Below the pieces are notes generated by a model. That model was not told where the DNA came from and searched no databases. It saw nothing but the letters and a program-made list of their open reading frames with translations. Shown one piece after another: positions 22,058 through 59,914 of a stretch of 64,000 nt of DNA. Origin of the DNA: Shigella phage SHSML-52-1. The translations under genes and the position numbers were made by a program. Positions within the stretch are counted from its first letter, which is position 1, and every line of letters begins with the position of its first letter. The DNA lies in the sequence record KX130865, one strand, 5' to 3'.

Positions 22058-22743
<686 letters not shown>

Positions 22744-22820
22744 TTTTCACAAAACAGTTTACATAAGGATGATGGCGTGATACTATCATCCTATCAAATA
22801 AACAACCTCAAGGAAATAAA

Positions 22821-23108
22821 ATGAAAACCTATAAAGAATTTATATCACCTGATGCTAACGTTTCTACTCTGACCGAAGCGACCCTTACTTCCGAAGTTAT
22901 TAAAGCAAATAAAGGACGTGAGGGTAAACCAATGATTAGTCTGGTTGACGGCGAAGAAGTAAAAGGTACTGTTTACTTAGGGGATGGATGGTCTGCTAAG
23001 AAAGATGGCGCTACTATTGTTATCTCTCCGGCCGAAGAGACCGCACTGTTTAAAGCTAAGCATATTTCTGTAGCTCAGCTTAAAATTATTGCAAAAACCC
23101 TTCTGTAA
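22821..23108 (+). CDS. ipI: internal protein I (IPI)-like, capsid-targeted
   Basis: 95 aa as T4 IPI; starts MKTYKEFI (capsid targeting sequence); L-T-E at residue 19 gives a 76-aa mature form like T4 IPI*. Confidence 0.7.
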   Translation: MKTYKEFISPDANVSTLTEATLTSEVIKANKGREGKPMISLVDGEEVKGTVYLGDGWSAKKDGATIVISPAEETALFKAKHISVAQLKIIAKTLL

Positions 23109-23112
23109 GTAG

Positions 23113-23149
23113 TTTACATGCTAATAGGACTATGGTATAGTAGTCCTAT
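23113..23149 (+). promoter_or_regulatory. early promoter cassette (-35 GTTTAC, -10 TATAGT inside inverted repeat)
   Basis: GTTTAC 23113-23118, 17-nt spacer, TATAGT 23136-23141; arms ATAGGACTA 23124-23132 and TAGTCCTAT 23141-23149. Confidence 0.6.
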
Positions 23150-23171
23150 CAAAATTAATTAGGAAAATAAA

Positions 23172-23480
23172 ATGAAAACCTACAAAGAATTTATCAATGA
23201 AGCGGCTGCACCAAAGACATTCGTTATTAATACTCAAGCGAGTCTTGATGATGAGTACGCGGAAGCAATTCTGAGGTCACTTGCTAAGAACGGCGTTGAA
23301 GTAACTGCATCAGACTTTAAGAAAGGGGCTCCCGAGATGTTTATTTCTATAGTTAAAGGATCTAAAGCTAAGATTAAATCATCATTCGGAGTTGCTCGTA
23401 CCGATCAAATCGACAGTCATGACTTTAAACAAACCGGCGTTAAACGGCAGAATACGATTGCATCACGCGGAATAAAATAG
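23172..23480 (+). CDS. capsid-targeted internal protein-like (CTS MKTYKEFINE)
   Basis: 102 aa; N-terminal MKTYKEFINE with I-N-E gp21-type cleavage context; body unrelated to the other CTS proteins. Confidence 0.6.
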   Translation: MKTYKEFINEAAAPKTFVINTQASLDDEYAEAILRSLAKNGVEVTASDFKKGAPEMFISIVKGSKAKIKSSFGVARTDQIDSHDFKQTGVKRQNTIASRGIK

Positions 23481-23492
23481 TTTATAAAACCG

Positions 23493-23530
23493 TTTACTTT
23501 TAGATAGGGTAGTGATACTATTACCCTATC
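23493..23530 (+). promoter_or_regulatory. early promoter cassette with 9-bp inverted repeat
   Basis: GTTTAC 23493-23498; TACTAT 23516-23521; arms GATAGGGTA 23503-23511 and TACCCTATC 23522-23530. Confidence 0.6.
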
Positions 23531-23549
23531 AACTACTGAGGAGAATAAA

Positions 23550-23735
23550 ATGAAACGCGCTGAACTGATTCGTAATGTTGCTGTAGTAATTGCTTCAATG
23601 GCTTTTAGTTTTTCGATGTTTGTAGGATTCATTTGTGGACTACTGACAACAACTGAAAATTCTATCTCATTGGTAGTAGCATTTCTAATCGGTTTAATCG
23701 CTATTGTTATGGATAAAATTGCAAAAGGTGAGTAA
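23550..23735 (+). CDS. small membrane protein (two predicted TM helices)
   Basis: 61 aa, hydrophobic stretches VAVVIASMAFSF and LVVAFLIGLIAIV; GAGGAG SD. Confidence 0.5.
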   Translation: MKRAELIRNVAVVIASMAFSFSMFVGFICGLLTTTENSISLVVAFLIGLIAIVMDKIAKGE

Positions 23736-23736
23736 A

Positions 23737-24099
23737 ATGAAATATCACGTATATGCGGATTTTGAAGCAAATCCTTCTAAAGACCCGGATTGTCGTTTAT
23801 TCCGTAATCCGTTTGATTCAGCAGCTCAAGCATGGGCCTGGATTAAAACTTGTACTCCTTCTTACACTTTCTTTGAAGTGGTAGATGATAATGGTGTTTT
23901 GCATCCAGAACCTACAGAAACTATTAATTTCCTTCTGTTTGCTGGTTATGACTGTTATCCTCTTGGTGGTATTGACGACCTTGTTGCTACAGGAAAAACT
24001 GTTGAAGCTCTTCGCGAAATTTATAAAAACGCAGAAGAAAATTTTGACTGGTATCATATTGTTGATGCTCATACCTTTGAAGTGGTGGAACATTCATGA
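23737..24099 (+). CDS. hypothetical protein
   Basis: 120 aa from ATG 23737 (MKYHVYADFEA) 2 nt after the upstream stop. Confidence 0.55.
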   Translation: MKYHVYADFEANPSKDPDCRLFRNPFDSAAQAWAWIKTCTPSYTFFEVVDDNGVLHPEPTETINFLLFAGYDCYPLGGIDDLVATGKTVEALREIYKNAEENFDWYHIVDAHTFEVVEHS

Positions 24100-24386
24100 T
24101 TCTTTATGCTAAGGTAAAATCCGTTGAGAATGGATATGAAAGCGATCAACGTGCAGCTAAAGCACTAGTCGATTACTATGGTATTTTGACCCACTTTGAA
24201 GTTGAAAAGGTTTACGTCGACCGTTCATCTTCACAGGTTAAATTACTTTGGGAAGACCGCAAATTTAATAGTGTGAACTTTGATTTCTTTATTGAAACAG
24301 AAAAAGGTCCTCTTGAATATGATATTTTCAAGAATCCTTTAAATCTTGAATGTATTGAGTATAATTACATTAATATGGTACGGTGA
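24096..24386 (+). CDS. hypothetical protein
   Basis: 96 aa; ATGA start-stop overlap with upstream gene. Confidence 0.5.
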   Translation: MILYAKVKSVENGYESDQRAAKALVDYYGILTHFEVEKVYVDRSSSQVKLLWEDRKFNSVNFDFFIETEKGPLEYDIFKNPLNLECIEYNYINMVR

Positions 24387-24390
24387 GTAA

Positions 24391-24906
24391 ATGAATATTT
24401 GTTTAGGCAGTACAATTCCTAAGGGTTATGTAATTGATGTCACTACCTATGAAAATGACGGGGACAACTATAAAACCAAAACATTGTTTGAAGTGGAAGA
24501 GCATGAGCTCCAACAGTTTAAATATCTCTTGAAGAAATTTAAGAGTCGTCATTCCAGCACTAAAGCTGAACGTTACTGTGGTAATACACCATTCAGTGAC
24601 TGCTCGCTTATTATCTACGAATATCTGGTTGAAGGGCTGTTCTCAGACCAACTCCGACCAGAATTTATTAAAAAGGTCTTTGGCATCGAAGTAGACCTTG
24701 GTGATAAATCTGAAGAAGACGAAGCCCGCGTATTCGACCTGTTCTTTGTGAAAGGCGATGAGATATCTCAAGGACTTATTGATATTCTTGGCTATGCTTC
24801 TGAATACTATGATTACGATTTCTTGCGTGTAGTTGAACGTGTCGAATTTGCTTATATTGAAGAAGAAATTGTTTTGCCAACTGTTAAAATGATTGATTTG
24901 CTTTAA
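24391..24906 (+). CDS. hypothetical protein
   Basis: 171 aa ORF tightly packed after upstream gene. Confidence 0.5.
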   Translation: MNICLGSTIPKGYVIDVTTYENDGDNYKTKTLFEVEEHELQQFKYLLKKFKSRHSSTKAERYCGNTPFSDCSLIIYEYLVEGLFSDQLRPEFIKKVFGIEVDLGDKSEEDEARVFDLFFVKGDEISQGLIDILGYASEYYDYDFLRVVERVEFAYIEEEIVLPTVKMIDLL

Positions 24907-24985
24907 GAATTATGTGTTATTATTAATTCATACCCTCTATTACCAAAGGTGCTCTAAAGTGCCTTTCATAATAGAAAGTTATTAA

Positions 24986-25060
24986 GGCCCTGTAGCTCAA
25001 TGGGAGAGCTGTCAGCTCATAACTGATAGGTAGCTGGATCGAAACCAGCCAGGGTCACCA
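24986..25060 (+). tRNA. tRNA, anticodon CAU (Met or lysidine-type Ile; cannot distinguish)
   Basis: Hand-folded cloverleaf: acceptor GGCCCTG/CAGGGTC, D stem GCTC/GAGC, anticodon stem GTCAG/CTGAT with loop CTCATAA, T stem GCTGG/CCAGC, encoded CCA. Confidence 0.8.
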
Positions 25061-25063
25061 ATT

Positions 25064-25140
<77 letters not shown>

Positions 25141-25158
25141 ACTTCAAGTGAGGAAAAT

Positions 25159-25503
25159 ATGAAAGGTAATATTTATCTGGTAGTTCATGATTTAACGTTT
25201 TATTTTAACGAACAGGATACAGTTATTTCCGACCGGTTGATTAATTCATTATATCAACACGCTGATTACGTTTATTTCCAAAATGAATTTGGCCATTGGA
25301 AGTTTCTTAAAAACCGTTCCGGGTTAACTAGTTTTGAATACTTTGACCGTAAAGACCTTTTAAACGAAATCCCATTGCAACATCGGTTCCAGAAACGCGA
25401 ATCACTATACTATTGTCGCCATATACCAAATGCTGAATGTGTTTATGAAGCGATTAATCTATGGCGTCGGCGTCGAGAGCAAATTGATGATATGCCAAAA
25501 TAA
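25159..25503 (+). CDS. hypothetical protein
   Basis: 114 aa from ATG 25159 (GAGGAA SD); the longer track ORF from 25111 would overlap tRNA-Arg. Confidence 0.5.
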   Translation: MKGNIYLVVHDLTFYFNEQDTVISDRLINSLYQHADYVYFQNEFGHWKFLKNRSGLTSFEYFDRKDLLNEIPLQHRFQKRESLYYCRHIPNAECVYEAINLWRRRREQIDDMPK

Positions 25504-25815
25504 GAAGCCGGGTCGCTACCGGCAAGTCGTCGGACTGATGTTCCCTGAGTAAGGACTGGTCTTAATAAATCTTTATGATTTGTTAATATCCCCTTACATC
25601 ACAGCAGAAACGGCGCACAAAATTATCGATTCGAGGAAATATCTTTGCCGTAATCCGAGTAGCGTTTTTGACGGAACGTTCGGATATGGTCGAGATATGG
25701 CCTTTTAAAAATATTGAGTAGCGTCAACTGCTTAATAACCAGGTTCAAATCCCGGCGTTTCGTACAAACACTTGCCTTAGCAGGTGGAACCCCGACAAGG
25801 TTGCCGCAAGGCTTA

Positions 25816-25841
25816 GCCCCTTCCGAAAGGTTGGGGCTTTT
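25816..25841 (+). terminator. intrinsic terminator (GCCCC...GGGGC + T-tract), copy 1 of 3
   Basis: AGCCCCTTCCGAAAGGTTGGGGCTTTT: GC stem with GAAA loop then U-tract. Confidence 0.65.
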
Positions 25842-25886
25842 GGCATAATAATAAATAGATAAGTTAATTAACTTAGGAAAAGCAAC

Positions 25887-26351
25887 ATGAAATCATACGC
25901 TGAATTTTTGACTGAACAATCTAGTTCAGATGTAAAAGCCGCTGCGATTGCAGCAATTCAAGCAGGTAAATATTCTTACAAAGACGCCTCTGATGAAGAA
26001 CGTTTCCGTTTTATTAGAGATTTTAAAGCCGAAGGTTTTACTAATGCTAATACTGTTAGCCGAGTTTTTAAAAGCCTAGCTGCATCAGGTGAATTGTTCC
26101 AGAAAGCTACAGGTAAAGCACCTGCGCCAAAAACAGACCCTAAAGCAGCTCAAGAAAAAAATATCGCCAAAGGAATTATTTCTAAGTATGAAGCAATTCT
26201 TAAAGAGCTTTTAGTAATCAAAACAGAAGGCCAGAAACTGGCACGAGCACATAGCTTCAAAGATAATCCTCACGCTCATAGCCTTGAGTATGTTGAAGAT
26301 ATCCAAAAACTTATTAAAGACCGTATCTGGTCTGCTAAACAAATTAAATAA
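25887..26351 (+). CDS. capsid-targeted internal protein-like (CTS MKSYAEFLTE)
   Basis: 154 aa; N-terminal MKSYAEFLTE with L-T-E cleavage context. Confidence 0.6.
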   Translation: MKSYAEFLTEQSSSDVKAAAIAAIQAGKYSYKDASDEERFRFIRDFKAEGFTNANTVSRVFKSLAASGELFQKATGKAPAPKTDPKAAQEKNIAKGIISKYEAILKELLVIKTEGQKLARAHSFKDNPHAHSLEYVEDIQKLIKDRIWSAKQIK

Positions 26352-26357
26352 TAGAAT

Positions 26358-26384
26358 GCCCCTTCCTTATGGTTGGGGCCTTTT
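26358..26384 (+). terminator. intrinsic terminator, copy 2 of 3
   Basis: GCCCCTTCCTTATGGTTGGGGCCTTTT immediately after the stop at 26351. Confidence 0.7.
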
Positions 26385-26417
26385 GGTATCTAGGGCATAA
26401 AAATATTTCATAAAGAT

Positions 26418-26446
26418 GTTTACTTCTTCCCTAGATGTGTTACTAT
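26418..26446 (+). promoter_or_regulatory. early promoter (-35 GTTTAC, -10 TACTAT)
   Basis: GTTTAC 26418-26423, 17-nt spacer, TACTAT 26441-26446. Confidence 0.55.
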
Positions 26447-26474
26447 AGACCTATCAAAACATGGGGAGAATATT

Positions 26475-26978
26475 ATGAGTCTTTACACTGAACTGAATAA
26501 AAAATCTGAAGAATCTGCTGAAACTATTTTTAAAAACGTGCAAAAGCGTATTTTGGAAAAGATGTACGATGCAGCATCTAAAGGTGAAAAATCTTGCCGG
26601 TTTCCGATGAGGTGTTCTTCTGATTTATGCGCAAATACTATTGAATGGCTGGAAAGTGAAGGTCTTACGGTAGAGAAAAACCCGGCGACTTCTATTGACA
26701 GTGAATCATATATTAGTATTTCTTGGGATAAATCAAGGGTAGAAGAGAAAGATGGTGATTGGGTTGTAGATGTTAAAACTTCTGATGGTGGACGTTCTGT
26801 TGAAGTTTCAGCTGTAGTTAAAGGTACCCACGAACAAAGGACTTGGGGTTGGGGTGGTGAAGAAAAAGAAATTGTTCTTAGTGTGATTGCCAGGTCAACT
26901 AGTAATAAAATTGCACAAAGCATCATCTATGCTGCATGTATCGAAGCTGGAAAAATTTGCAAAATTAAAAATAAATGA
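26475..26978 (+). CDS. hypothetical protein
   Basis: 167 aa; SD GGGGAG; downstream of early promoter. Confidence 0.55.
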   Translation: MSLYTELNKKSEESAETIFKNVQKRILEKMYDAASKGEKSCRFPMRCSSDLCANTIEWLESEGLTVEKNPATSIDSESYISISWDKSRVEEKDGDWVVDVKTSDGGRSVEVSAVVKGTHEQRTWGWGGEEKEIVLSVIARSTSNKIAQSIIYAACIEAGKICKIKNK

Positions 26979-27035
26979 TGTACAAACACCATGGACGGTG
27001 TTACTATAGACCTATCAAATCAAGAGGAAAACAAA

Positions 27036-27263
27036 ATGGCTACAGTTAGTATTGATGTCGTTGATTATGAATACACAGAAGAAGTTATTCGCAACCGTCA
27101 CCCTGAAGTTCGTATTGATTCAGTACAAGATTCCAAGTTCTGGACAACTGAGCTTAATCTGAGTGGTCCTTATGAAGCTGTTAAGAAGTTCATGGTTGAA
27201 GAATACTGCGAAGGCATGCACCCCGAAGACGCCAAGTTTTATGTCAATTTGATTAAAAAATAA
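27036..27263 (+). CDS. hypothetical protein
   Basis: 75 aa from ATG 27036 (AAGAGGAAA SD). Confidence 0.5.
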   Translation: MATVSIDVVDYEYTEEVIRNRHPEVRIDSVQDSKFWTTELNLSGPYEAVKKFMVEEYCEGMHPEDAKFYVNLIKK

Positions 27264-27298
27264 TTTACAAACTCTTGAGAGCAGAGTATAATGCTCTC
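27263..27298 (+). promoter_or_regulatory. early promoter cassette (-10 TATAAT flanked by GAGAGC/GCTCTC)
   Basis: ATTTAC 27263-27268; TATAAT 27287-27292; arms 27277-27282 and 27293-27298; near-duplicate of the cassette at 57854. Confidence 0.55.
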
Positions 27299-27334
27299 AT
27301 GGATAATAAACCCACTAATTGAAAAGGTAATAAT

Positions 27335-27928
27335 ATGAACACTCTGAAGAAACTTGTTGAATTCATTCGCACTAAACTGGGTACTGCCATGGCTAAAAAT
27401 CTGACTGTCGAAGAACAGTATAACGCAGCTGCAGATAAGTTGATTACCCAAATCAAAGAACTAAAAACGGCTTCTGTTAAATCTATTAATGAAGAAAAAC
27501 GTATTCGCGAACTTGTTAATGAAAAGAACAAGCAAGCCGCTTCTAAGGAACGTGAAATTCGTAAACTCCTGGCTGAAGGACAAGATGTTACCATGCATGC
27601 TAAGCTTGGTCTTCTGTATCGTCGAACTGCCGAACAACTTAATACAAAAGCTGACGGGTATGCCGCTATGCGAATTGAAATTGCTCGTAAGGTGGTTGAA
27701 CTTGACGATGCTCGTCAGAACCTGGCAATCAAACTCGAATACATTCGTGAAACTCGAGCAGCCAATGCCCTTGGTATCTCTACCGCTGACGATGTAATTG
27801 AAATCGCTGCACTGACTAAGGTTGATATCGAAGACACTCTGACTCGTGTTGAAACGTTCAATGGCACTCCAGCTGGTGTCGAAACCACTTCTGCTGATGT
27901 ACAAGAATATATTAACTCTTTGAAATAA
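27335..27928 (+). CDS. coiled-coil protein, possibly PspA/IM30-like
   Basis: 197 aa, almost entirely heptad-like helical sequence with an amphipathic N-terminus; family assignment is a guess. Confidence 0.5.
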
Positions 27929-27936
27929 AATAATAC

Positions 27937-27958
27937 GGAGGACTCCGGTCCTCCTTTT
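27937..27958 (+). terminator. intrinsic terminator
   Basis: GGAGGAC-TCCG-GTCCTCC followed by TTTT, right after the stop at 27928. Confidence 0.7.
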
Positions 27959-27977
27959 GGATAATAAAGGAGTTAAC

Positions 27978-28580
27978 ATGCGAAACCAAAATAATGATAT
28001 TGACTCAATGTTCGAAGAGTTCCGAGATAAGGTAAATCCACCTACGTCTTTAGTTGATTCATTACGATATGTTGCAACCGGACGTAAATGGTACTGGTCG
28101 TCTTCTTATGAGACCACCGAGAAAACGGCTAGCCATAGCAGAAAATCTTTATTAGCCCCAGGTATTATGATTCATGATATCGGAGCTATTGCTAAACTAG
28201 TTGCAGACCATGATATTAGATTCACTGATTTCGTTGCTCCTACGTGGTCTGTTTGTTGTTTAAACACTGAATGGGAATATATCAGCGAACGCTCTGAAGA
28301 TTATTATGGTTTTAGAGATAAGCTTCTGAGGTCTAATATGTTTTATATCGATACAGAAGTTCTAGTCGATAATAAAAAATATTACTTTACGTTAATCATC
28401 GATTCTGAAACTATGTATGAAGGCAAGCCTTTGCTTAAAAGAGTTGATGCTTTAAGTGCTATTGATGCGCTTTATGAAACTATGGTTGTTAGTCCTAATT
28501 TCACTAACAATTTAATCCTTGAGCAATTTATTATGGAATGTAGAGAATATGTCAAAGCCAACCCTATACATGCCAAGTAA
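27978..28580 (+). CDS. hypothetical protein (C-terminal FIMECRE tail)
   Basis: 200 aa from ATG 27978 (AAGGAG SD); C-terminus overlaps the start of the next gene. Confidence 0.55.
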   Translation: MRNQNNDIDSMFEEFRDKVNPPTSLVDSLRYVATGRKWYWSSSYETTEKTASHSRKSLLAPGIMIHDIGAIAKLVADHDIRFTDFVAPTWSVCCLNTEWEYISERSEDYYGFRDKLLRSNMFYIDTEVLVDNKKYYFTLIIDSETMYEGKPLLKRVDALSAIDALYETMVVSPNFTNNLILEQFIMECREYVKANPIHAK

Positions 28581-28944
28581 GCCTTGGGCCTACGAATACA
28601 AACGTAAATTAATCCCGTATGAAGTATTATTTGGTCCTATTTTAGCTTTAGCATTTTTAATCTTTATGATTATAGGAGCTATTTTAGATTCTAGTGAAGT
28701 TATATCGTCTGATGCAGCGTTTTCATTAATGTTCGTCGCACCATTTATTGTACCGTTTTTATTAATGCCTATTAATTGGGTAGGATATTGGCACCAAGGC
28801 CGTCATCACAGAGCCCGATTAAGAGAATGGAAAGTTCAGTGCGCAAAAGCCCAAGCTCAGTATGATGAAGCTGTTAAAAAGTATGAATATGAAGAAGCTA
28901 TGGAATTCGTTAAGGAAATAAGATGCAAAAGCCTCAACTCTTAA
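28549..28944 (+). CDS. small membrane protein, FxKExR-tail family member A
   Basis: 131 aa; two hydrophobic helices; C-terminus EFVKEIRCK overlaps the next start. Confidence 0.5.
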   Translation: MSKPTLYMPSKPWAYEYKRKLIPYEVLFGPILALAFLIFMIIGAILDSSEVISSDAAFSLMFVAPFIVPFLLMPINWVGYWHQGRHHRARLREWKVQCAKAQAQYDEAVKKYEYEEAMEFVKEIRCKSLNS

Positions 28945-29282
28945 CCGTATGGCCTTCTCTTGGTGAGAACATTCTAATTTTTATTATGAGTATTGGCATG
29001 GGATTTGCCTTTGGATTAGTTGGATTTCTTATTGACGGCGTTGTGTTAGGATTTATAGGGAACACTGGTGGATTCACAGACCAATGGCAGGACTTACGGT
29101 ATACCCAAGCCTTTGCATCCATCGCATCATTTTGTACTGTAGTCTATTTTTACTACGATTTTATAAACCACAACAAGAAAAATAAAAAGGTTTACGCTTC
29201 TCAAATGATTAGTTATAATGAACTCCTAGCTAGACGTGAAAATGAAACAATCGAAAACTTTATTAAGGAATGTAGAAAATGA
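28923..29282 (+). CDS. small membrane protein, FIKECR-tail family member B
   Basis: 119 aa; hydrophobic N-terminal half; ends ...ENFIKECRK with ATGA overlap to next gene. Confidence 0.55.
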   Translation: MQKPQLLTVWPSLGENILIFIMSIGMGFAFGLVGFLIDGVVLGFIGNTGGFTDQWQDLRYTQAFASIASFCTVVYFYYDFINHNKKNKKVYASQMISYNELLARRENETIENFIKECRK

Positions 29283-29584
29283 GTAAGATTATTGAAATTA
29301 AAGTACCAGAGTTTAATGATGCCAAATCCGCTTCAGATGCAATTTATAAACTTCTGAATCAAGCTGAACGTATCGAAGAAGAAGCAACAAAGATCGCAGA
29401 CCAATATGCCGTATCATTTTCTGTAGGTGATTATGGTAGCGGTCGTACTTATTATCCTAAGGGTGAAATCGTATCCCAGTGGATGAAAGATGAAATTGAA
29501 AATAATGGCGGCGATGTTAAGCGTGAAGGTAATGGATACGTTATTACTGAAGGTGCTTGGGTTTCGTCTTCTGCGTTGTGCTAA
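29279..29584 (+). CDS. hypothetical protein, WVSSS-x-x-C tail family (1 of 3 tandem paralogs)
   Basis: 101 aa ending GAWVSSSALC. Confidence 0.55.
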   Translation: MSKIIEIKVPEFNDAKSASDAIYKLLNQAERIEEEATKIADQYAVSFSVGDYGSGRTYYPKGEIVSQWMKDEIENNGGDVKREGNGYVITEGAWVSSSALC

Positions 29585-29593
29585 GGAATCATT

Positions 29594-29866
29594 ATGTCTA
29601 AAGAACAAACCGAACTGGCTGAAGCTGTAGCAAAAATCTATGCCGCTATTGAGGCTGCCAAAGAAATTGCTGATAAACAAAACACAACATTCAACTTGTA
29701 CCCAGCTTATGGTATGGGTGGAACCTATCATTCACCCGGACATCTTAAAGCCGATCTTGAACGTTGTACAAAAAACGGTTATGCCGAATGGGCTGACGTT
29801 TACCAATACGACTACAACCTGAGCCTCGAAACTGGTGGTTGGGTCGCATCTTCTCACACTTGCTAA
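29594..29866 (+). CDS. hypothetical protein, WVSSS-x-x-C tail family (2 of 3)
   Basis: 90 aa ending GGWVASSHTC; 9-nt intergenic spacer with AAGGAA SD. Confidence 0.55.
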   Translation: MSKEQTELAEAVAKIYAAIEAAKEIADKQNTTFNLYPAYGMGGTYHSPGHLKADLERCTKNGYAEWADVYQYDYNLSLETGGWVASSHTC

Positions 29867-29875
29867 GGAAACAAT

Positions 29876-30073
29876 ATGTCTCGTGAATTAGATTGTGCTG
29901 TACGTACGGCAGTAGCTGCTCTGGAAAACCTGTTCCAAATTGCAACAGAAGAACGCGAAGAAGTTACATTATGGATTGAAGATAACGCAGGTCTGAATCT
30001 CCAGGACGCGATCTCATTATCCCACAATAGTATCACTTTTCAAGGCTGGGTATCATCTAGTTATTCTTGCTAA
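29876..30073 (+). CDS. hypothetical protein, WVSSS-x-x-C tail family (3 of 3)
   Basis: 65 aa ending QGWVSSSYSC. Confidence 0.5.
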   Translation: MSRELDCAVRTAVAALENLFQIATEEREEVTLWIEDNAGLNLQDAISLSHNSITFQGWVSSSYSC

Positions 30074-30077
30074 AACA

Positions 30078-30116
30078 GTTTACAACAAGATAGGGCTATG
30101 TTATAGTAGTCCTATC
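30078..30116 (+). promoter_or_regulatory. early promoter cassette (ATAGGACTATGTTATAGTAGTCCTAT family)
   Basis: GTTTAC 30078-30083; TATAGT 30102-30107 within an imperfect inverted repeat. Confidence 0.55.
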
Positions 30117-30135
30117 AAAACAAATGGAGTCCACA

Positions 30136-30375
30136 ATGATTTATTACGAAAGTATCGGAACCAAAGTGGTTGGTAAAACCATTACTCGTGAAAAGTTTGC
30201 AAAGATATTCGATATGCGTTATAAAAAATCTGAACACAAAGGCATCCGATTCGAAGATGCGCACTGTACAATTTGCCCTTATAATGAAGACATAAACGGT
30301 ACAATCGTTCCATTGGTAGAGGCTTCACATGATGACCTCTGGGATGAATATAATATCGCATGTCGTGAAATTTAA
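30136..30375 (+). CDS. hypothetical protein
   Basis: 79 aa from ATG 30136. Confidence 0.45.
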   Translation: MIYYESIGTKVVGKTITREKFAKIFDMRYKKSEHKGIRFEDAHCTICPYNEDINGTIVPLVEASHDDLWDEYNIACREI

Positions 30376-30403
30376 GTTAATGAATTAATCCGAGGAAAAT
30401 ATT

Positions 30404-31360
30404 ATGATGTTAGTTATTGGTTCTCGTGCACTTCACTATCACGGTCTTATTGATTCTAGCGCTATTAAAAATAGTGATTGGGACTTTATTGCGGACCAAG
30501 GTTCTTGGAATGCATTCAAAAATCAAATGATGGGTGTATATGTTCACCAAGATAACCCTGATGTCCAAGTTTTCAAATGCTTCCATAATGGACGCGAAAC
30601 TCATTTTGAAGCATACATCGTTCCGGCTATCACTAACGTTCGCGAACTAGTCGGTGAACTCACTCCTGAAGATTTCACGTCTTCTTATGACCTTTTAAAA
30701 TACGCCAAGAAAAATTTGACTAAAGACCGTTTGAACGGGTTTTACTGGGCAACTCCTGAGATATGTCTTGCAATTAAGATGTCTCATCGTTTCAAGAAAA
30801 ATAATCCATTCTTTTTAAAGACTATGAACCATATTCAGTATCTTCGTGGTAAAGGTGTTACACTGAACGATGAACTTACTGAAATTATGCTGAAGCGCCA
30901 GAAAGAAACCTTGAATTATGCTCACCCAGTTCTTGACACTTCTAAAAGTGCGTTCTTTAAAGATGACATCTATACATATGACCATGATACTATTCATGAA
31001 GCCATTGCACTAACAGACCGTCCAGCGTATACATTTTATATGAAAGATGGTTCTGAAGTCATGACCTCACGCGAGAAGTTCGAATCATTACCAGAAATGG
31101 TCAAATTGGCCGGCGTATACGAAGAATCATGTGTACTAGCGTTAGAACGTTCTCAGATTCCTAATAATTTTGAAATCCATCCACGTGATAGTTTTATGAT
31201 GGCCCTTGAAAAGGTCTGTACATCAATCACATCAGGATGGTTCCGTGAGTTCGCTTGGGAAAATTATAGCAAAGTAGTAAGTATGTACCAAAGCTTAGGA
31301 CACGACGATTACGTCAAGCGTTTCAAACAAAACTTTCATATGGTAAAACCTTTCAAATAA
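30404..31360 (+). CDS. hypothetical protein (318 aa)
   Basis: Long ORF with AGGAAAA SD; N-terminal GS...SDWDF loosely resembles a nucleotidyltransferase motif but the spacing is atypical. Confidence 0.6.
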   Translation: MMLVIGSRALHYHGLIDSSAIKNSDWDFIADQGSWNAFKNQMMGVYVHQDNPDVQVFKCFHNGRETHFEAYIVPAITNVRELVGELTPEDFTSSYDLLKYAKKNLTKDRLNGFYWATPEICLAIKMSHRFKKNNPFFLKTMNHIQYLRGKGVTLNDELTEIMLKRQKETLNYAHPVLDTSKSAFFKDDIYTYDHDTIHEAIALTDRPAYTFYMKDGSEVMTSREKFESLPEMVKLAGVYEESCVLALERSQIPNNFEIHPRDSFMMALEKVCTSITSGWFREFAWENYSKVVSMYQSLGHDDYVKRFKQNFHMVKPFK

Positions 31361-31372
31361 TTTCACAAAACA

Positions 31373-31402
31373 GTTTACAAGGTCTGTAGTTGTTGATACT
31401 AT
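31373..31402 (+). promoter_or_regulatory. early promoter (-35 GTTTAC, -10 TACTAT)
   Basis: GTTTAC 31373-31378, 18-nt spacer, TACTAT 31397-31402. Confidence 0.55.
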
Positions 31403-31440
31403 AGACCTATCAAAACAAATGAGTGAATGGAGATATAAAA

Positions 31441-31641
31441 ATGACTACTTTGAATAAACGTTTCGGTAAAGCTAAACCTGGTTGTGCAGCAGAACGTCGT
31501 TATGTTTTCGCTCAGTTAGAAGATGTAGAGTATCAGATTAATCAAGTTCACATTACTGGTATCGAGCCTATGTGTGGCCTTGAAGCTCTTCGTGAAGTTC
31601 GTGATGGGTATCGTCGTGACATCGAAGAAATGTCAAAATAA
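31441..31641 (+). CDS. hypothetical protein
   Basis: 66 aa from ATG 31441 (GGAG SD). Confidence 0.45.
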   Translation: MTTLNKRFGKAKPGCAAERRYVFAQLEDVEYQINQVHITGIEPMCGLEALREVRDGYRRDIEEMSK

Positions 31642-31642
31642 G

Positions 31643-31679
31643 TGTACAAACTGATAGGACTATGTTATAGTAGTCCTAT
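31643..31679 (+). promoter_or_regulatory. early promoter cassette (ATAGGACTATGTTATAGTAGTCCTAT family)
   Basis: GTGTAC 31643-31648; TATAGT 31666-31671; arms 31654-31662 and 31671-31679. Confidence 0.55.
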
Positions 31680-31699
31680 TAAAACATGAGGAGAATATT

Positions 31700-32005
31700 A
31701 TGAAATTAGGCGAAACCAACCGAATTGGTCTTTTAACAATATTTGTATCACTTTTTTACGCAGCTCTTTCTGTTGCAGTATTACAAAAGGCTTACAGTAT
31801 GGATGGTGTTCCTGGTTTTGTATTCTTATCGCCGTTTTTGCTATTCGTTGGAGCATTGTTATTATATGCCACGACTAGTTTCGACCATAACGTCTGGGTC
31901 AATTATAAATGTAAATTGTCTGAAGAAGAACACGCAGAAGCTCGTAAAAAAGCTATTGAATCTACCAATCTAGAAAATTTCATTAAAGAATGTCGAGGAA
32001 AATAA
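31700..32005 (+). CDS. small membrane protein, FIKECR-tail family member C
   Basis: 101 aa; two hydrophobic helices; ends ...ENFIKECRGK two nt before the next ATG. Confidence 0.55.
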   Translation: MKLGETNRIGLLTIFVSLFYAALSVAVLQKAYSMDGVPGFVFLSPFLLFVGALLLYATTSFDHNVWVNYKCKLSEEEHAEARKKAIESTNLENFIKECRGK

Positions 32006-32006
32006 T

Positions 32007-32693
32007 ATGAATAGTTCTAAAGTGTTTAATAGTCAAGCTCGTGCAGTAGGTGGTTTTGCTCATGCGATTAAAAATGACCAGATTAAAAACGAGCCTATGT
32101 TCTTTAACTGCGATTTGAATTTTGCTTTTGATAATGGCGGTCCAATTACTCGTAGCTTCATTATGAACTTGCCGGATGATTGGAACACCGACCAGGGTGT
32201 ATTTGATTCACGAGTCCACATGCTGATGCCTGGTTGGTACCCTGCTATCCCAGGTTATCACCATGACGATGTACCACGTCCGGATATTCCGGTTGGTCAA
32301 CATTTTATTACTGCAGGACAACCTGACTATGACAATCCTCGTTACCATTCTGAACATATTCTTGGTCTTGTTAACGCTGATGTGTGTCCTACTCATTTTG
32401 CAACAGGAACTGCAGAGTTCAGTCAGATTCCTGATGGCGAACTTATCTATCGCCAGTGGCACAAAGAAGTCCTCGAAAAAATTGAAAAAGGTGAACTAGA
32501 GAAATGGGAAGCTCCAGACCGTACTCTTCTTCAGTTTGATTGGCAAACATGGCACACTGGTTCTCGTGCAATTAGTAATGGATGGCGTTGGTTCGGACGT
32601 GTATCTCGTAATACAGACCGAGTTAAAAAGATTACCAATGAAATTCGTGTCAATGCTCAAGTTTATCTGGAATTCCCTATGGAAGGCTGGTAA
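32007..32693 (+). CDS. hypothetical protein (His-rich; possible metal-dependent enzyme)
   Basis: 228 aa; HHDD near residue 85 and WHTGSR near residue 185 could be an HxD...H metal site; speculative. Confidence 0.55.
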   Translation: MNSSKVFNSQARAVGGFAHAIKNDQIKNEPMFFNCDLNFAFDNGGPITRSFIMNLPDDWNTDQGVFDSRVHMLMPGWYPAIPGYHHDDVPRPDIPVGQHFITAGQPDYDNPRYHSEHILGLVNADVCPTHFATGTAEFSQIPDGELIYRQWHKEVLEKIEKGELEKWEAPDRTLLQFDWQTWHTGSRAISNGWRWFGRVSRNTDRVKKITNEIRVNAQVYLEFPMEGW

Positions 32694-33184
32694 TGATTAA
32701 CAAAACATATTGGTCTAATATAGACGATGGCAACGAAGGTATTTCGTACTATTCAGTGGATTGGACAGGATGTCCATCCTACTTAGTGAAACGTATTTGC
32801 CAAGAATTTAAAATCGACCAGCCAGCAGGTATTATCGTGAACAGATACATTAATGGATATCAACCTATCGATGAAGTAATACGAACAACTCAAGCTGAGC
32901 TTGAAAAGTTTTTCAATAAGTGCCAATGGATAACAGGATGGATTATATTTGTACCGTCGGTATGGTTTTTCAGTACTAAGGTGAGTTCTTTCGGTTTTGT
33001 TGATATTATTGCTATCTTATTAGCATCTAGTATCGTAAGTGTTGTTGGTGGCATCATTGGCGGCGGTACCGCCGCCATCATTATTAATCTTATTAAAAGT
33101 AGTTTACAAGAACATAAAGACAAGATAAAAGCCAAGAATAATGAAGTTGAACGTTTTATTACCGAATGCAGGAATTTGAGATGA
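32693..33184 (+). CDS. membrane protein, FIKECR-tail family member D
   Basis: 163 aa; hydrophobic central region with G-rich helix; ends ...ERFITECRNLR overlapping the next start. Confidence 0.55.
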   Translation: MINKTYWSNIDDGNEGISYYSVDWTGCPSYLVKRICQEFKIDQPAGIIVNRYINGYQPIDEVIRTTQAELEKFFNKCQWITGWIIFVPSVWFFSTKVSSFGFVDIIAILLASSIVSVVGGIIGGGTAAIIINLIKSSLQEHKDKIKAKNNEVERFITECRNLR

Positions 33185-33417
33185 GTATAGCAATTTACAT
33201 TAAATCAGAATCATGTGATAGTTATCTGTACACATATGATAAAGATGTGTCAGAAGAAAAAATCAAAGACGACCTTAATACGGACCTTGATATGTTCTGT
33301 CCTATTGCAGATTACAAACTTGCGGTCTCTAATAGTGAAAGTCCATCTAAAGAAACGCGCATTGAAGAATTTATGTCTGAATTAATGGCCAAATCATGGG
33401 ACCGAGATGATGAGTAA
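33181..33417 (+). CDS. hypothetical protein
   Basis: 78 aa from ATG 33181 (ATGA overlap with upstream stop). Confidence 0.45.
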   Translation: MSIAIYIKSESCDSYLYTYDKDVSEEKIKDDLNTDLDMFCPIADYKLAVSNSESPSKETRIEEFMSELMAKSWDRDDE

Positions 33418-33865
33418 GAAAAATAAAGTGAAAGAGCTATCAGCCGGTATTATTTTCCTTACCGAAGATAAAGAGTTATTCATGGGGCGTGTAACTGGTT
33501 CTCGTCCTAAAGGTGCATTAACTCATCGGTGGGATATTCCTAAAGGCCGTGTCGAACCTGGCGAATCTCCTATTGAAGCCGCTATTCGTGAATGCGAAGA
33601 AGAAACTGGGTTTACACAATATGACCCTGCCTTCCTGAAAGACCTAGGTGAACATCATTACTCAGACAATAAGAATATTCATCTGTTCCTATATACCATC
33701 CCTGTAGAGCACGAGCAATTCAGAAACAGTGTTTGTAATTCCTATCATACATTCCAAGGCGGACGACAGATTCCTGAATTTGATGCATTCGCTTTAATTA
33801 AACCTTCTCAATGGGAATATGTAATGGGCAAATCGTTATATAAGGTGCTCACTACCCTCCTATAA
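33407..33865 (+). CDS. nudE: Nudix hydrolase NudE (e.1)
   Basis: 152 aa; Nudix box GRVEPGESPIEAAIRECEEETG; adjacent to lysozyme e as in T4. Confidence 0.85.
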   Translation: MMSKKNKVKELSAGIIFLTEDKELFMGRVTGSRPKGALTHRWDIPKGRVEPGESPIEAAIRECEEETGFTQYDPAFLKDLGEHHYSDNKNIHLFLYTIPVEHEQFRNSVCNSYHTFQGGRQIPEFDAFALIKPSQWEYVMGKSLYKVLTTLL

Positions 33866-33867
33866 GT

Positions 33868-33897
33868 AATAAATACCTCCTATAAACGTGGGAGGTA
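33868..33897 (+). promoter_or_regulatory. late promoter-like AATAAATA plus SD-sequestering hairpin of gene e
   Basis: AATAAATA 33868-33875; arms TACCTCC 33874-33880 and GGAGGTA 33891-33897, the right arm being the SD of e; same layout as the classic T4 e control region. Confidence 0.6.
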
Positions 33898-33899
33898 TT

Positions 33900-34388
33900 A
33901 TGAATATATTTGAAATGCTTCGTAATGACGAAGGTCTTAGACTGACTTTATACAAAGACACTGAAGGCTTTTGGACGATTGGCATAGGCCATTTAGTAAC
34001 AAAGAACCCGTCTTTAGCCGTAGCTAAAGCTGAACTTGACAGAATGATCGGCCGTAAATGCAACGGTACAATTACCCTTGATGAGGCTGAAAAGCTATTT
34101 AATGAAGACGTTGATAAAGCTGTCCGCGGAATCTTGGGTAATGCTAAACTTAAACCGGTATATGATTCTTTAGATGCAGTTCGTCGGTGTGCATTGGTCA
34201 ATATGGTCTTCCAAATGGGTGTAGCAGGAGTCGCCGGTTTTACTAATTCTCTTCGTATGCTTAAACAGAAACGTTGGGATGAAGCGGCAGTAAATCTAGC
34301 TCAATCTAAATGGTATCGTCAGACACCTAATCGCGCGAAACGCGTAATCTCAACATTTAAAACAGGAACTTGGAAAGCGTATATATGA
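33900..34388 (+). CDS. e: endolysin (T4 lysozyme e)
   Basis: Begins [32 protein letters not shown], near-identical to T4 lysozyme; start at ATG 33900 not the upstream GTG. Confidence 0.95.
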
Positions 34389-34666
34389 AAACATATAGTG
34401 AATTTTTATCAGAATCTATTCTTAACGAAGCTACTGACACATTTGCAACTAAGCTAGGTGCAGCTTTGGTTGAAGCTGAAAGTCTATTAGCACGTATTTC
34501 TGAACTTGCTAGTAAGATAGATACTCGCAAATTTGAACGTACCAGCGATATCGCTAAGCTTGAAGCCTTGTTGCGTATGTGCGATAAACCAGAAGAAATC
34601 GCTAAGAACGGCTCGCTGATGAAACAACGTCTTGAAAAATATATTTCAGGCGCTTCAGAAAAATAG
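34385..34666 (+). CDS. capsid-targeted internal protein-like ([13 protein letters not shown])
   Basis: 93 aa from ATG 34385 (ATGA overlap with the e stop); L-S-E cleavage context. Confidence 0.6.
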
Positions 34667-34667
34667 T

Positions 34668-34697
34668 GTTTACTTCCTCTAAGGGTTTTGATACTAT
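34668..34697 (+). promoter_or_regulatory. early promoter (-35 GTTTAC, -10 TACTAT)
   Basis: GTTTAC 34668-34673, 18-nt spacer, TACTAT 34692-34697; upstream of denV. Confidence 0.55.
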
Positions 34698-34724
34698 ACA
34701 TTCATCAACTACTTGGAGGAAATT

Positions 34725-35138
34725 ATGACTCGTATCAATTTAACACTTGTTTCTGAACTGACCGATCAACATCTTATGGCTGAGTATCGTGAATTACCAC
34801 GCGTATTTAGTGCAGTCCGTAAACATGTCCAAAACGGTAAACGTGTAAAGGATTTTAAAATCTCTCCAACATTTATCTTAGGCACAGGTCACGTAACATT
34901 CTTTTACGACAAACTCGAATTTTTACGTTTACGTCAAATCGAGCTAATTGCCGAATGCTTGAAACGTGGTTTCAAAATCAAGGACACGACAGTCCAGGAT
35001 ATTTCCGACATCCCTGCCGAATTTCGTAATAATTATGTCCCGTCCGAAGCGTCCGTTGCGATAAGTCAAGCACGCTTAGATGAAAAAATTGCTCAACGTC
35101 CTACTTGGTACAAATACTATGGTAAATCAATTTACTAA
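34725..35138 (+). CDS. denV: endonuclease V (pyrimidine dimer DNA glycosylase)
   Basis: 137 aa beginning [28 protein letters not shown], near-identical to T4 DenV; GGAGG SD. Confidence 0.95.
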
Positions 35139-35144
35139 GGAAAA

Positions 35145-35405
35145 ATGAAAATGTATCAAGAATTTATCATTGAAGCAGATGCCAAAGGTCCTAAATTTAA
35201 AGTTAAAGCTTTCATTGGTGATGCCGAAGACTTTGGCTCATTAAAACGTAATGGGTATTCTTTCTTAGGTGGCGATGGTAAAGAAATCAACACCTATGCA
35301 AAACGTAGTGAAATTGCTTATGTTGTAGTAAATCCTAAAGTAGATGTTGACGATATTGGATACGATTTTAACAACTTCGGAATTATTTCTGGCGGTAAAG
35401 CTTAA
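35145..35405 (+). CDS. capsid-targeted internal protein-like (CTS MKMYQEFIIE)
   Basis: 86 aa; I-I-E cleavage context at residue 10. Confidence 0.55.
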   Translation: MKMYQEFIIEADAKGPKFKVKAFIGDAEDFGSLKRNGYSFLGGDGKEINTYAKRSEIAYVVVNPKVDVDDIGYDFNNFGIISGGKA

Positions 35406-35408
35406 ATT

Positions 35409-35438
35409 GTTTACGCTTAAGTATTAATATGGTATAAT
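35409..35438 (+). promoter_or_regulatory. early promoter (-35 GTTTAC, -10 TATAAT)
   Basis: GTTTAC 35409-35414, 18-nt spacer, TATAAT 35433-35438. Confidence 0.6.
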
Positions 35439-35469
35439 TACTCTATCAAAACAAACAAGGAAACAAAAA

Positions 35470-35772
35470 ATGAAAACATATCAAGAATTTATTACTGAAG
35501 CGCGAGTGAGTGCAGGTAAATTAGAAGCCGCTATAAATAAAAAGGCCCATTCATTTCATGATTTGTCCGATAAAGACCGTAAGAAACTTGTAAGCCTTTA
35601 TATTGACAAAGAGCGTATTCTCGCTCTTCCTGGCGCTAATGAAGGTAAACAGGCCAAGCCTTTGAATGCTGTCGAAAAGAAAATTGATAACTTTGCTTCT
35701 AAATTCGGTATGTCTATGGATGACCTTCAGCAAGCGGCTATCGAAGCAGCTAAAGTAATTAAAGGTAAATAA
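35470..35772 (+). CDS. capsid-targeted internal protein-like (CTS MKTYQEFITE; IPII-sized)
   Basis: 100 aa, same length as T4 IPII; I-T-E cleavage context. Confidence 0.6.
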   Translation: MKTYQEFITEARVSAGKLEAAINKKAHSFHDLSDKDRKKLVSLYIDKERILALPGANEGKQAKPLNAVEKKIDNFASKFGMSMDDLQQAAIEAAKVIKGK

Positions 35773-35885
35773 CAGTTTACTTTCTCCTAGAATTGTGATA
35801 GTATATTCATAATTACTTAGAGGGGTAAATACAGAAATGGACAATTCATGCGCCACGGAATGGCCCAACCTAAAAGAGAAACTAA

Positions 35886-37934: not shown

Positions 37935-38393
37935 ATGACTATCAATTCGGAAGTTTTTATCCGCCGTAATAAACTCCGTCGAATCTTTGAAACGGAGTTC
38001 CGCAAAATAAATGCCGGTATAAAAGATGCTGCAAAGTCTCTTGGACTACCAGGCTTTCATATCAAGTATTCTCAACATCTCTTAGATCGTGCCATCCAGA
38101 GAGAAATAGATGAGAATTACGTTTTTGAATTATTTCATAAAGTAAAAAATCATGTTAAAGAAGTTGCAGAATTTTTATCAATGCCGGCACGTCCAGATGT
38201 TGATGAAGATTTTGTCGAAGGTGTCGAATATCGCCCAGGCCGTTTAGAAATAACTGACGGAAATCTTTGGTTAGGACTTACAGTTTGTCGCGAAAATCCA
38301 GCATTCAAAATGAAGACTCTTCAATGCAGAATGGCTATTATTAACAGTAAACGACTACCAGGAAAAGCTTCTAAAGCAGTGATTAAAATCTAG
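37935..38393 (+). CDS. regB: RegB site-specific endoribonuclease
   Basis: 152 aa beginning MTINSEVFIRRNKLRR and ending RLPGKASKAVIKI, near-identical to T4 RegB. Confidence 0.92.
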   Translation: MTINSEVFIRRNKLRRIFETEFRKINAGIKDAAKSLGLPGFHIKYSQHLLDRAIQREIDENYVFELFHKVKNHVKEVAEFLSMPARPDVDEDFVEGVEYRPGRLEITDGNLWLGLTVCRENPAFKMKTLQCRMAIINSKRLPGKASKAVIKI

Positions 38394-58638: not shown

Positions 58639-59196
58639 ATGACTGAACAAAAACCTAAAAATAACTATGTGAATAATAAAGAGCTTCTCGCCGCTATAAT
58701 CGAGTGGAAAAAGGAGCTCTTAAATAATAAAGACCCAAACAAAATTATTCGTCAGAATGATACCATCGGTTTAGCAATTATGCTTATCGCCGAAGGCCTG
58801 TCCAAACGTTTCAACTTTTCAGGATATACCCAGTCTTGGAAGCAGGAGATGATTGCAGATGGGATTGAAGCCTCTATTAAGGGACTTCATAATTTCGACG
58901 AAACTAAGTACAATAACCCACATGCATACATAACTCGAGCTTGTTTTAATGCTTTTGTCCAACGTATCAAAAAAGAACGTAAGGAAGTTGCAAAGAAATA
59001 TAGTTACTTCGTTCATAACGTCTACGACAGTCATGACGATGATATGGTAGCGTTGGTAGATGAAACGTTTATTCAAGACATCTACGATAAAATGACGCAT
59101 TATGAAGAATCCGCTTATAAAGCTCCTGGGGCTGAAAAGAAGGAAGTTGTTAGCGATTCGCCTAGTTTGGATTTTTTATATGAGGATGACAATTGA
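58639..59196 (+). CDS. 55: late sigma factor gp55
   Basis: 185 aa beginning [35 protein letters not shown], near-identical to T4 gp55. Confidence 0.92.
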
Positions 59197-59395
59197 CATC
59201 TCTAACTACTTAGAAGAACCTTTTGACGAAGCAATCCCTTATTTGGTAAAACTGTTGGGTCGAGAATTTAAAATTAATTTTGACATCGACCCTTTGAACC
59301 CACATGACGTGTCATTTTCGATAAATGGGACTCCGGTTGAGTATGAGTTCTGTGTTGAAGAGGACGGACGTTTTTATTTTAATTTAATGAGATAA
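59186..59395 (+). CDS. hypothetical protein; start uncertain
   Basis: ORF overlapping the gp55 3' end; ATGs at 59180 and 59186. Confidence 0.4.
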
Positions 59396-59396
59396 T

Positions 59397-59720
59397 ATGA
59401 CTACCGAGATTATTGAAAATAAAGAAGCAGAAGATGCAGTAGCTAAAATGCTACAAGAAATCCAAAAGAAAAATGAAGCTGAAGCACGTAAAAAATCCGA
59501 AAAGATTCTTAAAAAGAATCGTTTTGAACTAAACCGTCTTTATGCTCATGCTCAAGAAGCAGCAATTCAAAACAACTTCGAAGCTTATGAATATGCTATT
59601 AAGAAATCTCGGGATATTCTACGACAACCATATAATGACAAGTTAATTAAAATCCAGTGGGTTACTACTCGTCAGGCTATTGAGGACATCATTAATGGCG
59701 CTAGTTCAAACAAAGTTTAA
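59397..59720 (+). CDS. hypothetical protein
   Basis: 107 aa helical, Lys/Glu-rich. Confidence 0.5.
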   Translation: MTTEIIENKEAEDAVAKMLQEIQKKNEAEARKKSEKILKKNRFELNRLYAHAQEAAIQNNFEAYEYAIKKSRDILRQPYNDKLIKIQWVTTRQAIEDIINGASSNKV

Positions 59721-59901: not shown

Positions 59902-59914
59902 GAGATGATTATGC

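Follow-up and report, generated by a model that had tools for sequence, protein, structure and literature searches.

Why should six genes whose products are otherwise unlike one another open with the same few residues? The question is raised by a stretch of 64,000 nucleotides from Shigella phage SHSML-52-1 (KX130865), here called the window, in which six plus-strand open reading frames (ORFs) starting at 22821, 23172, 25887, 34385, 35145 and 35470 (named o22821 and so on below) all begin with MK[TSM]Y.EF[IL]. Our analysis indicates that the six are very probably internal head proteins (Ips) of the T4 type, injected with the DNA and directed against host nucleases. When the looser pattern M[KR].[YF].[ED]F was run through the six frames of the whole 64 kb, exactly these six ORF starts were retrieved and no others, in agreement with an earlier note on this DNA that had drawn attention to their common leader. 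From six-frame residue frequencies, MK.Y.EF was expected 0.011 times by chance against 6 times observed, and among 200 shuffles the mean was 0.015, with never more than 1 match; a chance origin of the six leaders was thus rejected. The same note had placed an (L/I)-x-E site at residue 10, or at residue 19 in the IPI-like protein, and this was confirmed: five proteins carry [IL]-x-E at residues 8–10 (INE, LTE, LSE, IIE and ITE), while o22821 has S-P at residues 9–10 and L-T-E at 17–19, matching T4 IPI (ITE19). Y4, F7 and [IL]8 were invariant in all six leaders and E10 in five of them; amber-suppressor experiments on T4 IPIII have shown targeting to depend on residues 4 and 7 and processing on 8 and 10, and the capsid-targeting consensus is MKTYQEFIAE (PMC9026906). 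The capsid-targeting leader of T4-type internal proteins was found in six of six and, by sequence alone, so was a prohead-protease site. Besides the key leader residues, the direct orthology of two of the six to IPI and IPII further supported the identification as T4-type internal proteins. All six genes have a GGA-type ribosome-binding site, and the leader codons vary synonymously among them (ACC/ACA/TCA, TAT/TAC, ATA/ATC/ATT/TTG); conservation and selection thus concern the peptide, not a DNA repeat.

Judging from the alignments, o22821 is the orthologue of T4 IPI (Ip1) and o35470 that of T4 IPII (IpII). Ip1 was 88% identical to T4 IPI over all 95 residues and 94.7% over the mature 76; its residues 20–95 covered positions 1–76 of 76 in the Pfam model PF11634 IPI_T4 (1.4e-50, 169.6 bits, cut-off 25) and matched PDB 2JUB (IPI*, 76 residues) at 6e-42. 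Since both the IPI* structure and the Pfam model begin at residue 20, the cleavage point was fixed after LTE19, and cleavage after E19 is predicted to leave the 76-residue IPI*. The protein belongs to phrog_4363 and is annotated as Ip1 in Shigella phage Shf125875. Like T4 IPI, it has a 19-residue leader ending in (I/L)TE and a position next to 57B; it differs by a few substitutions and by residing in an RB69-like phage, whose DNA probably carries arabinosyl-hydroxymethylcytosine (arabinosyl-hmC) rather than glucosyl-hmC. For this reason the enzyme range of Ip1 may differ from that of T4 IPI, a point that was left open for IPI in arabinosyl-hmC phages by the authors of PMC6024577. IpII was 94% identical to T4 IPII (NP_049734) over 86 aligned residues (E 1.5e-60), matched phrog_7857 at 4.5e-55 over 100 of 100 positions and is likewise named IpII in Shf125875. 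It shares with T4 IPII the 10-residue leader, the cleavage site and the neighbourhood (denV to vs.8); in T4, ipII adjoins ipIII between e and denV, whereas in the window denV lies between the Ip5-like gene o34385 and the pair o35145 and IpII. T4 homologues were found for these two proteins only, the other four bodies having none. T4 IPIII itself had no homologue in the window at E<=1e-5 (tblastn), its similarity being at the level of the leader; 192-aa IPIII-like genes are present in two of the related loci described below, L008 and L012.

Three of the remaining genes could be connected with known Ip families, the Ip7 and Ip5 assignments resting on GenBank annotations. The product of o23172 is labelled 'Ip7; similar to RB15 Ip7 CAA84464' in Shf125875 and matched phrog_2667 'internal head protein' at 5e-41, with no Pfam, NCBIfam or PDB match; its predicted mature part has 92 residues (pI 9.7). 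For o34385 the mechanical ORF reaches back to a TTG at 34370, and relatives start at the ATG at 34385, which overlaps the stop of the lysozyme gene e (e ends at 34388). From this start the protein was 47.6–51.2% identical over residues 1–84 to ip5 of T2, PP01 and wV7 (E 2e-15 to 2e-17), matched phrog_3499 'internal head protein' at 2e-46, is labelled 'internal head protein' in LF82-9, Lutter, EcNP1 and others, and clustered with L010_4893 from a related locus once the leader was removed. Annotation of small Ip genes is inconsistent across records: in Enterobacteria phage ATK47 (KT184309, 108834–109112) only the lysozyme gene is listed under the Ip5-like match, so that the ORF is apparently unannotated, and in HX01 the match falls into two parts with no feature listed. 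The third gene, o35145, starts 7 nt after denV and has a predicted mature part of 76 residues (pI 6.4); it matched phrog_35655 at 3e-26 and phrog_2667 at 9e-21, and is called 'internal head protein' in LF82-2, phiC120, EcNP1, G8 and Salmonella STP4-a and 'hypothetical' elsewhere.

The sixth gene, o25887, appears to be the only one without an internal-protein label in public records. Its product (mature part 144 aa, pI 9.6) matched phrog_2280 'unknown function' end to end at 1.4e-53, and of the 510 phage records that match it, all those sampled read 'hypothetical'. The other five genes occupy the hypervariable Ip loci, one extending from 57B to the tRNA genes and the other from e through denV to vs.8; o25887 lies outside both, in a third locus after a tRNA-Met/tRNA-Arg pair (24986–25137) and an ORF at 25111–25503; T4 has no gene at this position, only a 284-nt gap from rnaC to e.8. 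Within the family the leader stays 70–80% identical while the bodies fall to 21–26%; it is kept in homologues of 21–38% body identity, and a Klebsiella homologue starts MKFKEFLAE. The octamer AATAAATA, 29 nt upstream of the start codon, is one base off the T4 late promoter TATAAATA; the related locus L008 also has AATAAATA, and the exact TATAAATA stands at the same site, directly after a terminator hairpin, in L009, L010, L012 and Klebsiella phage M198. In the window a terminator-like GC hairpin (GCCCCTTCC..GGTTGGGGC) likewise lies upstream of o25887 and recurs in a copy 85% identical directly after the stop codon. The two could be recombination joints of an inserted gene module, since T4 lacks a gene here, and a late, monocistronic expression of o25887, as these signals suggest, would fit a prohead component made during head assembly. 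In relatives, a second leader-bearing gene of 187–205 aa that also matches phrog_2280 adjoins the o25887 homologue (187 aa in L008–L010); whether the window ORF at 26475–26978 corresponds to this paralogue was considered and rejected, as no relation was found (tblastn). A homologue search with o25887 gave only 9 close relatives, and the AlphaFold2 model, built from a 6-sequence alignment (predicted local distance difference test score 75, predicted template modelling score 0.44), was all-helical with two domains, a helical N-domain (13–75) and a long helical hairpin (85–151) joined by a flexible Pro/Lys linker, leader residues 1–10 being disordered. Structure searches with this model returned only its own family from BFVD and nothing from PDB at E<=0.001. 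PHROG gives phrog_2280 no functional label; its leader, late promoter and genomic position lead us to regard it as another candidate internal-protein family, and o25887 is probably packaged into the head.

Table 1. Six leader-bearing genes and associated features of the window (positions counted from its first letter)
Feature	Position	Strand	Remarks
Ip1, T4 IPI orthologue (o22821)	22821..23108	+	95-aa precursor, leader MKTYKEFISPDANVSTLTE
Ip7-type internal head protein (o23172)	23172..23480	+	102 aa, leader MKTYKEFINE
o25887, predicted internal protein	25887..26351	+	154 aa, leader MKSYAEFLTE
Ip5-family internal head protein (o34385)	34385..34666	+	93 aa, second predicted site ILNE15 after leader
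o35145, RB69ORF125c type, predicted internal head protein	35145..35405	+	86 aa, leader MKMYQEFIIE
IpII, T4 IPII orthologue (o35470)	35470..35772	+	100 aa, leader MKTYQEFITE
Early-type sigma-70 promoter, TTTACA-17-TACTAT with TG	22758..22786	+	upstream of Ip1; direct-repeat families D4, D5
Early-type promoter, TTTACA-17-TATAGT with TG	23113..23141	+	upstream of Ip7; hairpin TAGGACTA/TAGTCCTA; family D3
Early-type promoter, TTTACG-17-TATAAT with TG	35410..35438	+	upstream of IpII; family D3
Late-promoter-like AATAAATA	25850..25857	+	upstream of o25887
Terminator-like GC hairpin, first copy	25816..25841	+	upstream of o25887; direct-repeat family D19
Terminator-like GC hairpin, second copy	26358..26383	+	after o25887; direct-repeat family D19
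Early-promoter cassette copies (i)	22746-22800, 23111-23159, 23481-23535, 26418-26477, 26979-27038, 30067-30138		families D2-D5
Early-promoter cassette copies (ii)	31362-31433, 31636-31702, 34659-34697, 35408-35456, 35766-35804		families D2-D5
57B	22288-22743		
regB	37935-38387		

Behind the leader, the six bodies were unrelated to each other as far as tested, as the earlier note had also supposed. Pairwise BLASTP of the mature parts gave nothing significant (best E 0.004 over 22 residues), and hhalign of leader-stripped family alignments, which were shallow (3–5 sequences), gave a probability of at most 1% for every pair tested. A caveat is that PHROG 2667 scored both o23172 and o35145 well above the approximately 18–20 bits that the leader alone contributes; direct homology of these two was considered on this ground, and it was not reproduced by BLASTP or by hhalign with these shallow alignments, although a distant relationship may exist. 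Profile searches of each mature body, which had been proposed as a check, succeeded for Ip1 (PF11634), and the Pfam, NCBIfam and PDB sequence searches of the mature bodies returned nothing beyond IPI. Four of the mature bodies are basic (pI 9.0–9.7) and two near-neutral (pI 6.3–6.4). A tblastn search of the window with all bodies from the related loci returned only the six genes, and no leaderless copy of a tagged body was found there.

How such proteins would act can be outlined from T4. The N-terminal capsid-targeting sequence of about 10 residues (consensus MKTYQEFIxE) would bind the scaffolding core of the prohead, by which the protein would be built into the head; gp21 would cut after the Glu of (L/I)-x-E (at E10 in five, at E19 in Ip1, and in o34385 perhaps also at E15), and this cut would free the mature protein inside the capsid. 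Ejected with the DNA, the mature protein would be in the cell before any phage gene is expressed, and could there neutralise a host nuclease attacking sugar-modified hmC DNA. In T4, gp21 cleavage frees the protein from the core (PMC9026906) and takes place C-terminal to Glu (PMC5694885), and the first 10 IPIII residues alone are reported to package foreign proteins into T4 heads (Mullaney & Black 1996, as described in PMC9026906). The window spans gene 17 to gene 47, inverted relative to T4, with genes 20–24 falling outside it; the genes of the prohead protease gp21 and the scaffold gp22, which are among these, are core in all T4-related phages (PMC9026906). Head-internal cargo cut after Glu by a gp21-like protease (x-x-E) is also found in the ejection proteins of the giant phages phiKZ and SPN3US, where, unlike here, the propeptides are mostly longer than 100 residues, the motif is A/S-x-E and there is no portable 10-residue tag (PMC5694885).

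As for the targets, the three injected proteins Ip1, Ip2 and Ip3 inhibit one distinct GmrSD enzyme each, with no cross-protection (Silas et al. 2025, PMC12373910): T4 IPI blocks the CT596 GmrSD, and T4 IPII (Ip2) blocks an ECOR21-type GmrSD/BrxU enzyme (the latter from Silas et al. 2025, PMC12373910), while leaderless IPIII expressed in the host still rescues infection of ECOR17 (Srikant 2022). Because of their close orthology to T4 proteins shown to inhibit distinct GmrSD type IV enzymes, Ip1 and IpII of the window would be expected to have an anti-GmrSD role. From the leader (and, for o25887, also from its late-promoter control) we infer that Ip7, the Ip5 homologue, o35145 and o25887 are packaged as well, and by analogy these four may be subtype-specific inhibitors of GmrSD-family or other 'first-response' defences; GmrSD-type targets have been predicted for the remainder of 'the two Ip loci' (PMC12373910). 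That the extra proteins are candidate anti-defence effectors, as the earlier note proposed, is reasonable, although the hypothesis had already been published (Repoila 1994; Silas 2025, PMC12373910). Injected Ips are the only phage counter-defences already present as the DNA enters the cell, they influence which hosts therapeutic T4-like phages can infect, and each extra tagged body is a probe for an unidentified modification-dependent nuclease variant, here probably one recognising arabinosyl-hmC.

Several points weigh against this reading and have to be set beside it. The literature offered nothing usable on virion proteomics for Mosigvirus or T4-like Ips, so that packaging and cleavage are predicted; the four uncharacterised bodies showed no detectable similarity to known inhibitors or solved structures, and the targets named for them are guesses; and the older view of head proteins that neutralise the charge of DNA would suit the basic bodies as well. 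Expression is a further point: early-type promoters precede Ip1, Ip7 and IpII, and an exact late promoter was found directly upstream of none of the six genes, the only site with one mismatch being that before o25887. A late supply therefore has to be supposed; transcripts reading through from the TATAAATA at 21696 would be one source.

The early-type promoters belong to a cassette of approximately 50 nt (AAAACAGTTTACA ... -10 ... CCTATCAAAACA) with at least 11 copies in 14.5 kb, in each of which the -10 element is spanned by an 8-bp inverted repeat such as TAGGACTA/TAGTCCTA; the Ip1 promoter, too, has an inverted repeat across it. We take this cassette to resemble the mobile regulatory cassettes that, under the name 'promoter-early stem-loop', have been proposed as a means of shuffling modules in T4-type phages. 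The shared N-terminus might then be no packaging mark at all and merely hitchhike on a mobile unit of promoter, ribosome-binding site and first codons, as about 90 nt (promoter, 5' untranslated region and leader) are common to Ip1, Ip7 and IpII, and most cassette copies stand before non-Ip genes. Against this, many copies precede leaderless genes, and o25887, o34385 and o35145 have the leader without the promoter cassette. The synonymous codon variation with a kept peptide and the phrog_2280 leaders that outlast their bodies point the same way, as does the packaging of foreign proteins reported in PMC9026906 (from Mullaney & Black 1996) for the 10-residue T4 leader alone, and we hold hitchhiking to be very improbable. 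Packaging might also be real and the proteins be mainly structural or DNA-condensing head contents, such as basic counter-ions or ejection aids, rather than specific anti-defence effectors. The pI of the four basic bodies would suit this, and internal proteins are described in PMC7697877 as abundant in T4 heads and co-packed with DNA; against it, two bodies are near-neutral, all three T4 Ips have specific GmrSD targets with no cross-protection (PMC12373910), presence is patchy (o25887 in 510, o34385 in 495 and o35145 in 216 records, against 960 records matching the region), and the bodies turn over between unrelated folds. Patchiness and turnover together form the pattern of arms-race accessory genes and not of a generic structural need, and we hold a chiefly structural role to be improbable.

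A closer rival leaves injection in place and changes the target: the four uncharacterised proteins could act on something other than type IV enzymes, such as another immediate-early defence, or in host takeover in the manner of Alt. None of these bodies resembles IPI or a known nuclease inhibitor, and o25887 would stand apart by its size (144 aa mature), its two modelled helical domains, its separate locus and its apparent late control; moreover, T4 packages an enzyme, the ADP-ribosyltransferase Alt, by the same route (PMC9026906). On the other side, three of three Ips with a known target hit GmrSD and the rest are predicted to do likewise (PMC12373910), and no catalytic domain was detectable in any of the four with Pfam or NCBIfam. 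A target other than GmrSD is thus a live possibility for these four, especially o25887, though on balance an unlikely one. The reading of all six as injected, nuclease-directed T4-type internal proteins remains the one that we prefer.

Repoila, Tetart, Bouet and Krisch are said to have described, in 1994, a conserved leader and flanking expression signals around unrelated Ip bodies at two hypervariable loci. How unusual are six tagged genes, then? The earlier note had called them an expanded set, and this could not be upheld. In ten related loci from IMG/VR (handles L008, L009 and so on), each covering approximately 20 kb that surround gene e.6, leader-bearing ORFs numbered 3, 3, 3, 4, 4, 4, 4, 5, 5 and 7 per locus, so that six is ordinary and T4 at the low end; together with the six of the window these ORFs form 18 body clusters. 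An exact DNA-pattern scan of IMG/VR for the leader (at least 120 stretches), from which ORF starts with [LI]xE at residues 8–10 were kept, gave at least 102 tagged ORFs in at least 40 body clusters, of which at least 20 have more than one member; some singleton clusters on non-T4-like contigs are probably chance matches. At least ten Ip types at two polymorphic loci, identified by the leader, had been described by 1994, according to the citation of Repoila 1994 in PMC12373910, and the capsid-targeting sequence has been considered a possible evolutionary device for packaging varied proteins (Black-lab review, PMC9026906). The gene set of the window is a normal sample of the hypervariable cargo repertoire of T4-like phages. 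It agrees with the polymorphic T-even families of the Ip4–Ip13 type in combining a shared leader with unrelated small bodies at the classical loci, o23172 being Ip7 and o34385 close to ip5; the Ip5 homologue lies here in the e–denV locus, whereas T2 ip5 lies in the ipI locus, and o25887, unlike those families, is outside both classical loci.

Nor did the view that the extra proteins were uncharacterised survive. Ip1, Ip7, the Ip5 homologue and IpII have names, o35145 is annotated in several records, and PHROGs label four of the six families 'internal head/virion protein'; public resources thus already give five of the six genes an internal-protein name or label. The phenomenon itself is already known, having been described in 1994 and explained functionally in 2007–2025, and novelty is confined to phrog_2280. 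What the analysis adds is modest: an inventory for an RB69-like phage, the demonstration that six is ordinary, and the case that phrog_2280 deserves an 'internal protein' label.

The count of three such genes in T4, on which the idea of an expansion had been built, is the textbook one and stands as such, although in our scan the leader was also found on T4 gene 61.1. This gene (NC_000866 18966–19130, minus strand, locus L004; 54 aa, 'hypothetical') starts MKTFKEFIKE with I-K-E at residues 8–10, its homologues in IMG/VR (e.g. L078:14039) start MKTYKEFIKE, and 1217 phage records match its family, phrog_1823, including those of Acinetobacter and Aeromonas phages. Its N-terminus makes gp61.1 a candidate for a fourth packaged protein of T4, unless the likeness is coincidental. 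With this added, a wider proposal can be framed, to which we give slightly less than even weight: phrog_2280 and its 187–205-aa paralogues would form an overlooked third Ip locus, the products being packaged, injected and directed against a defence other than the GmrSD subtypes that Ip1–3 block, and the widely conserved gp61.1 would be packaged as well. Under this proposal the o25887 locus would be self-contained, its tagged gene and late promoter standing between two terminators, and its products would be larger helical proteins of two domains. Two other hits of the IMG/VR scan are recorded here. An 836-aa ORF at L027:193-2700 (minus strand; IMG/VR contig 3300029788_000135; a cluster of six members) starts MKTYIEFLKE, with LKE at residues 8–10, and shows helicase-like and DNA-methyltransferase-like motifs (DPFGGIGT) by eye; this may be a large enzyme bearing the packaging tag, or else its N-terminus resembles the leader by chance. 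On a 4.9-kb metagenome contig, L054:2597-3044 (minus strand) holds three tandem ORFs of 65–82 aa, each beginning MKTY(N/Q)EFL, and thus a densely packed group of leader-bearing genes.

The genomic setting agrees with an RB69-like phage. The region was 99% identical to ATK47 and 96.8% to Shf125875 (Mosigvirus, RB69 group), and the six genes lie between 57B and regB (Table 1), as had been correctly placed before. RB69 DNA carries arabinosyl-hmC, and GmrSD restricts RB69 unless its own IPI protects it (PMC6024577). In the window genes 55 and 47 are only some 1 kb apart (59185–60159), the T4 block a-gt/mobB/a-gt.2-.5 being absent; the lack of a-gt at the syntenic site would be consistent with an RB69-type genome, with arabinosyl-hmC and without alpha-glucosyltransferase. 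Away from the tagged genes, three consecutive small ORFs (101, 90 and 65 aa) at 29279–30073, between e.3 and e.2, have similar C-termini (...GAWVSSSALC, ...GGWVASSHTC and ...QGWVSSSYSC) with repeated junction DNA (family D9), and look like a tandem paralogue family.

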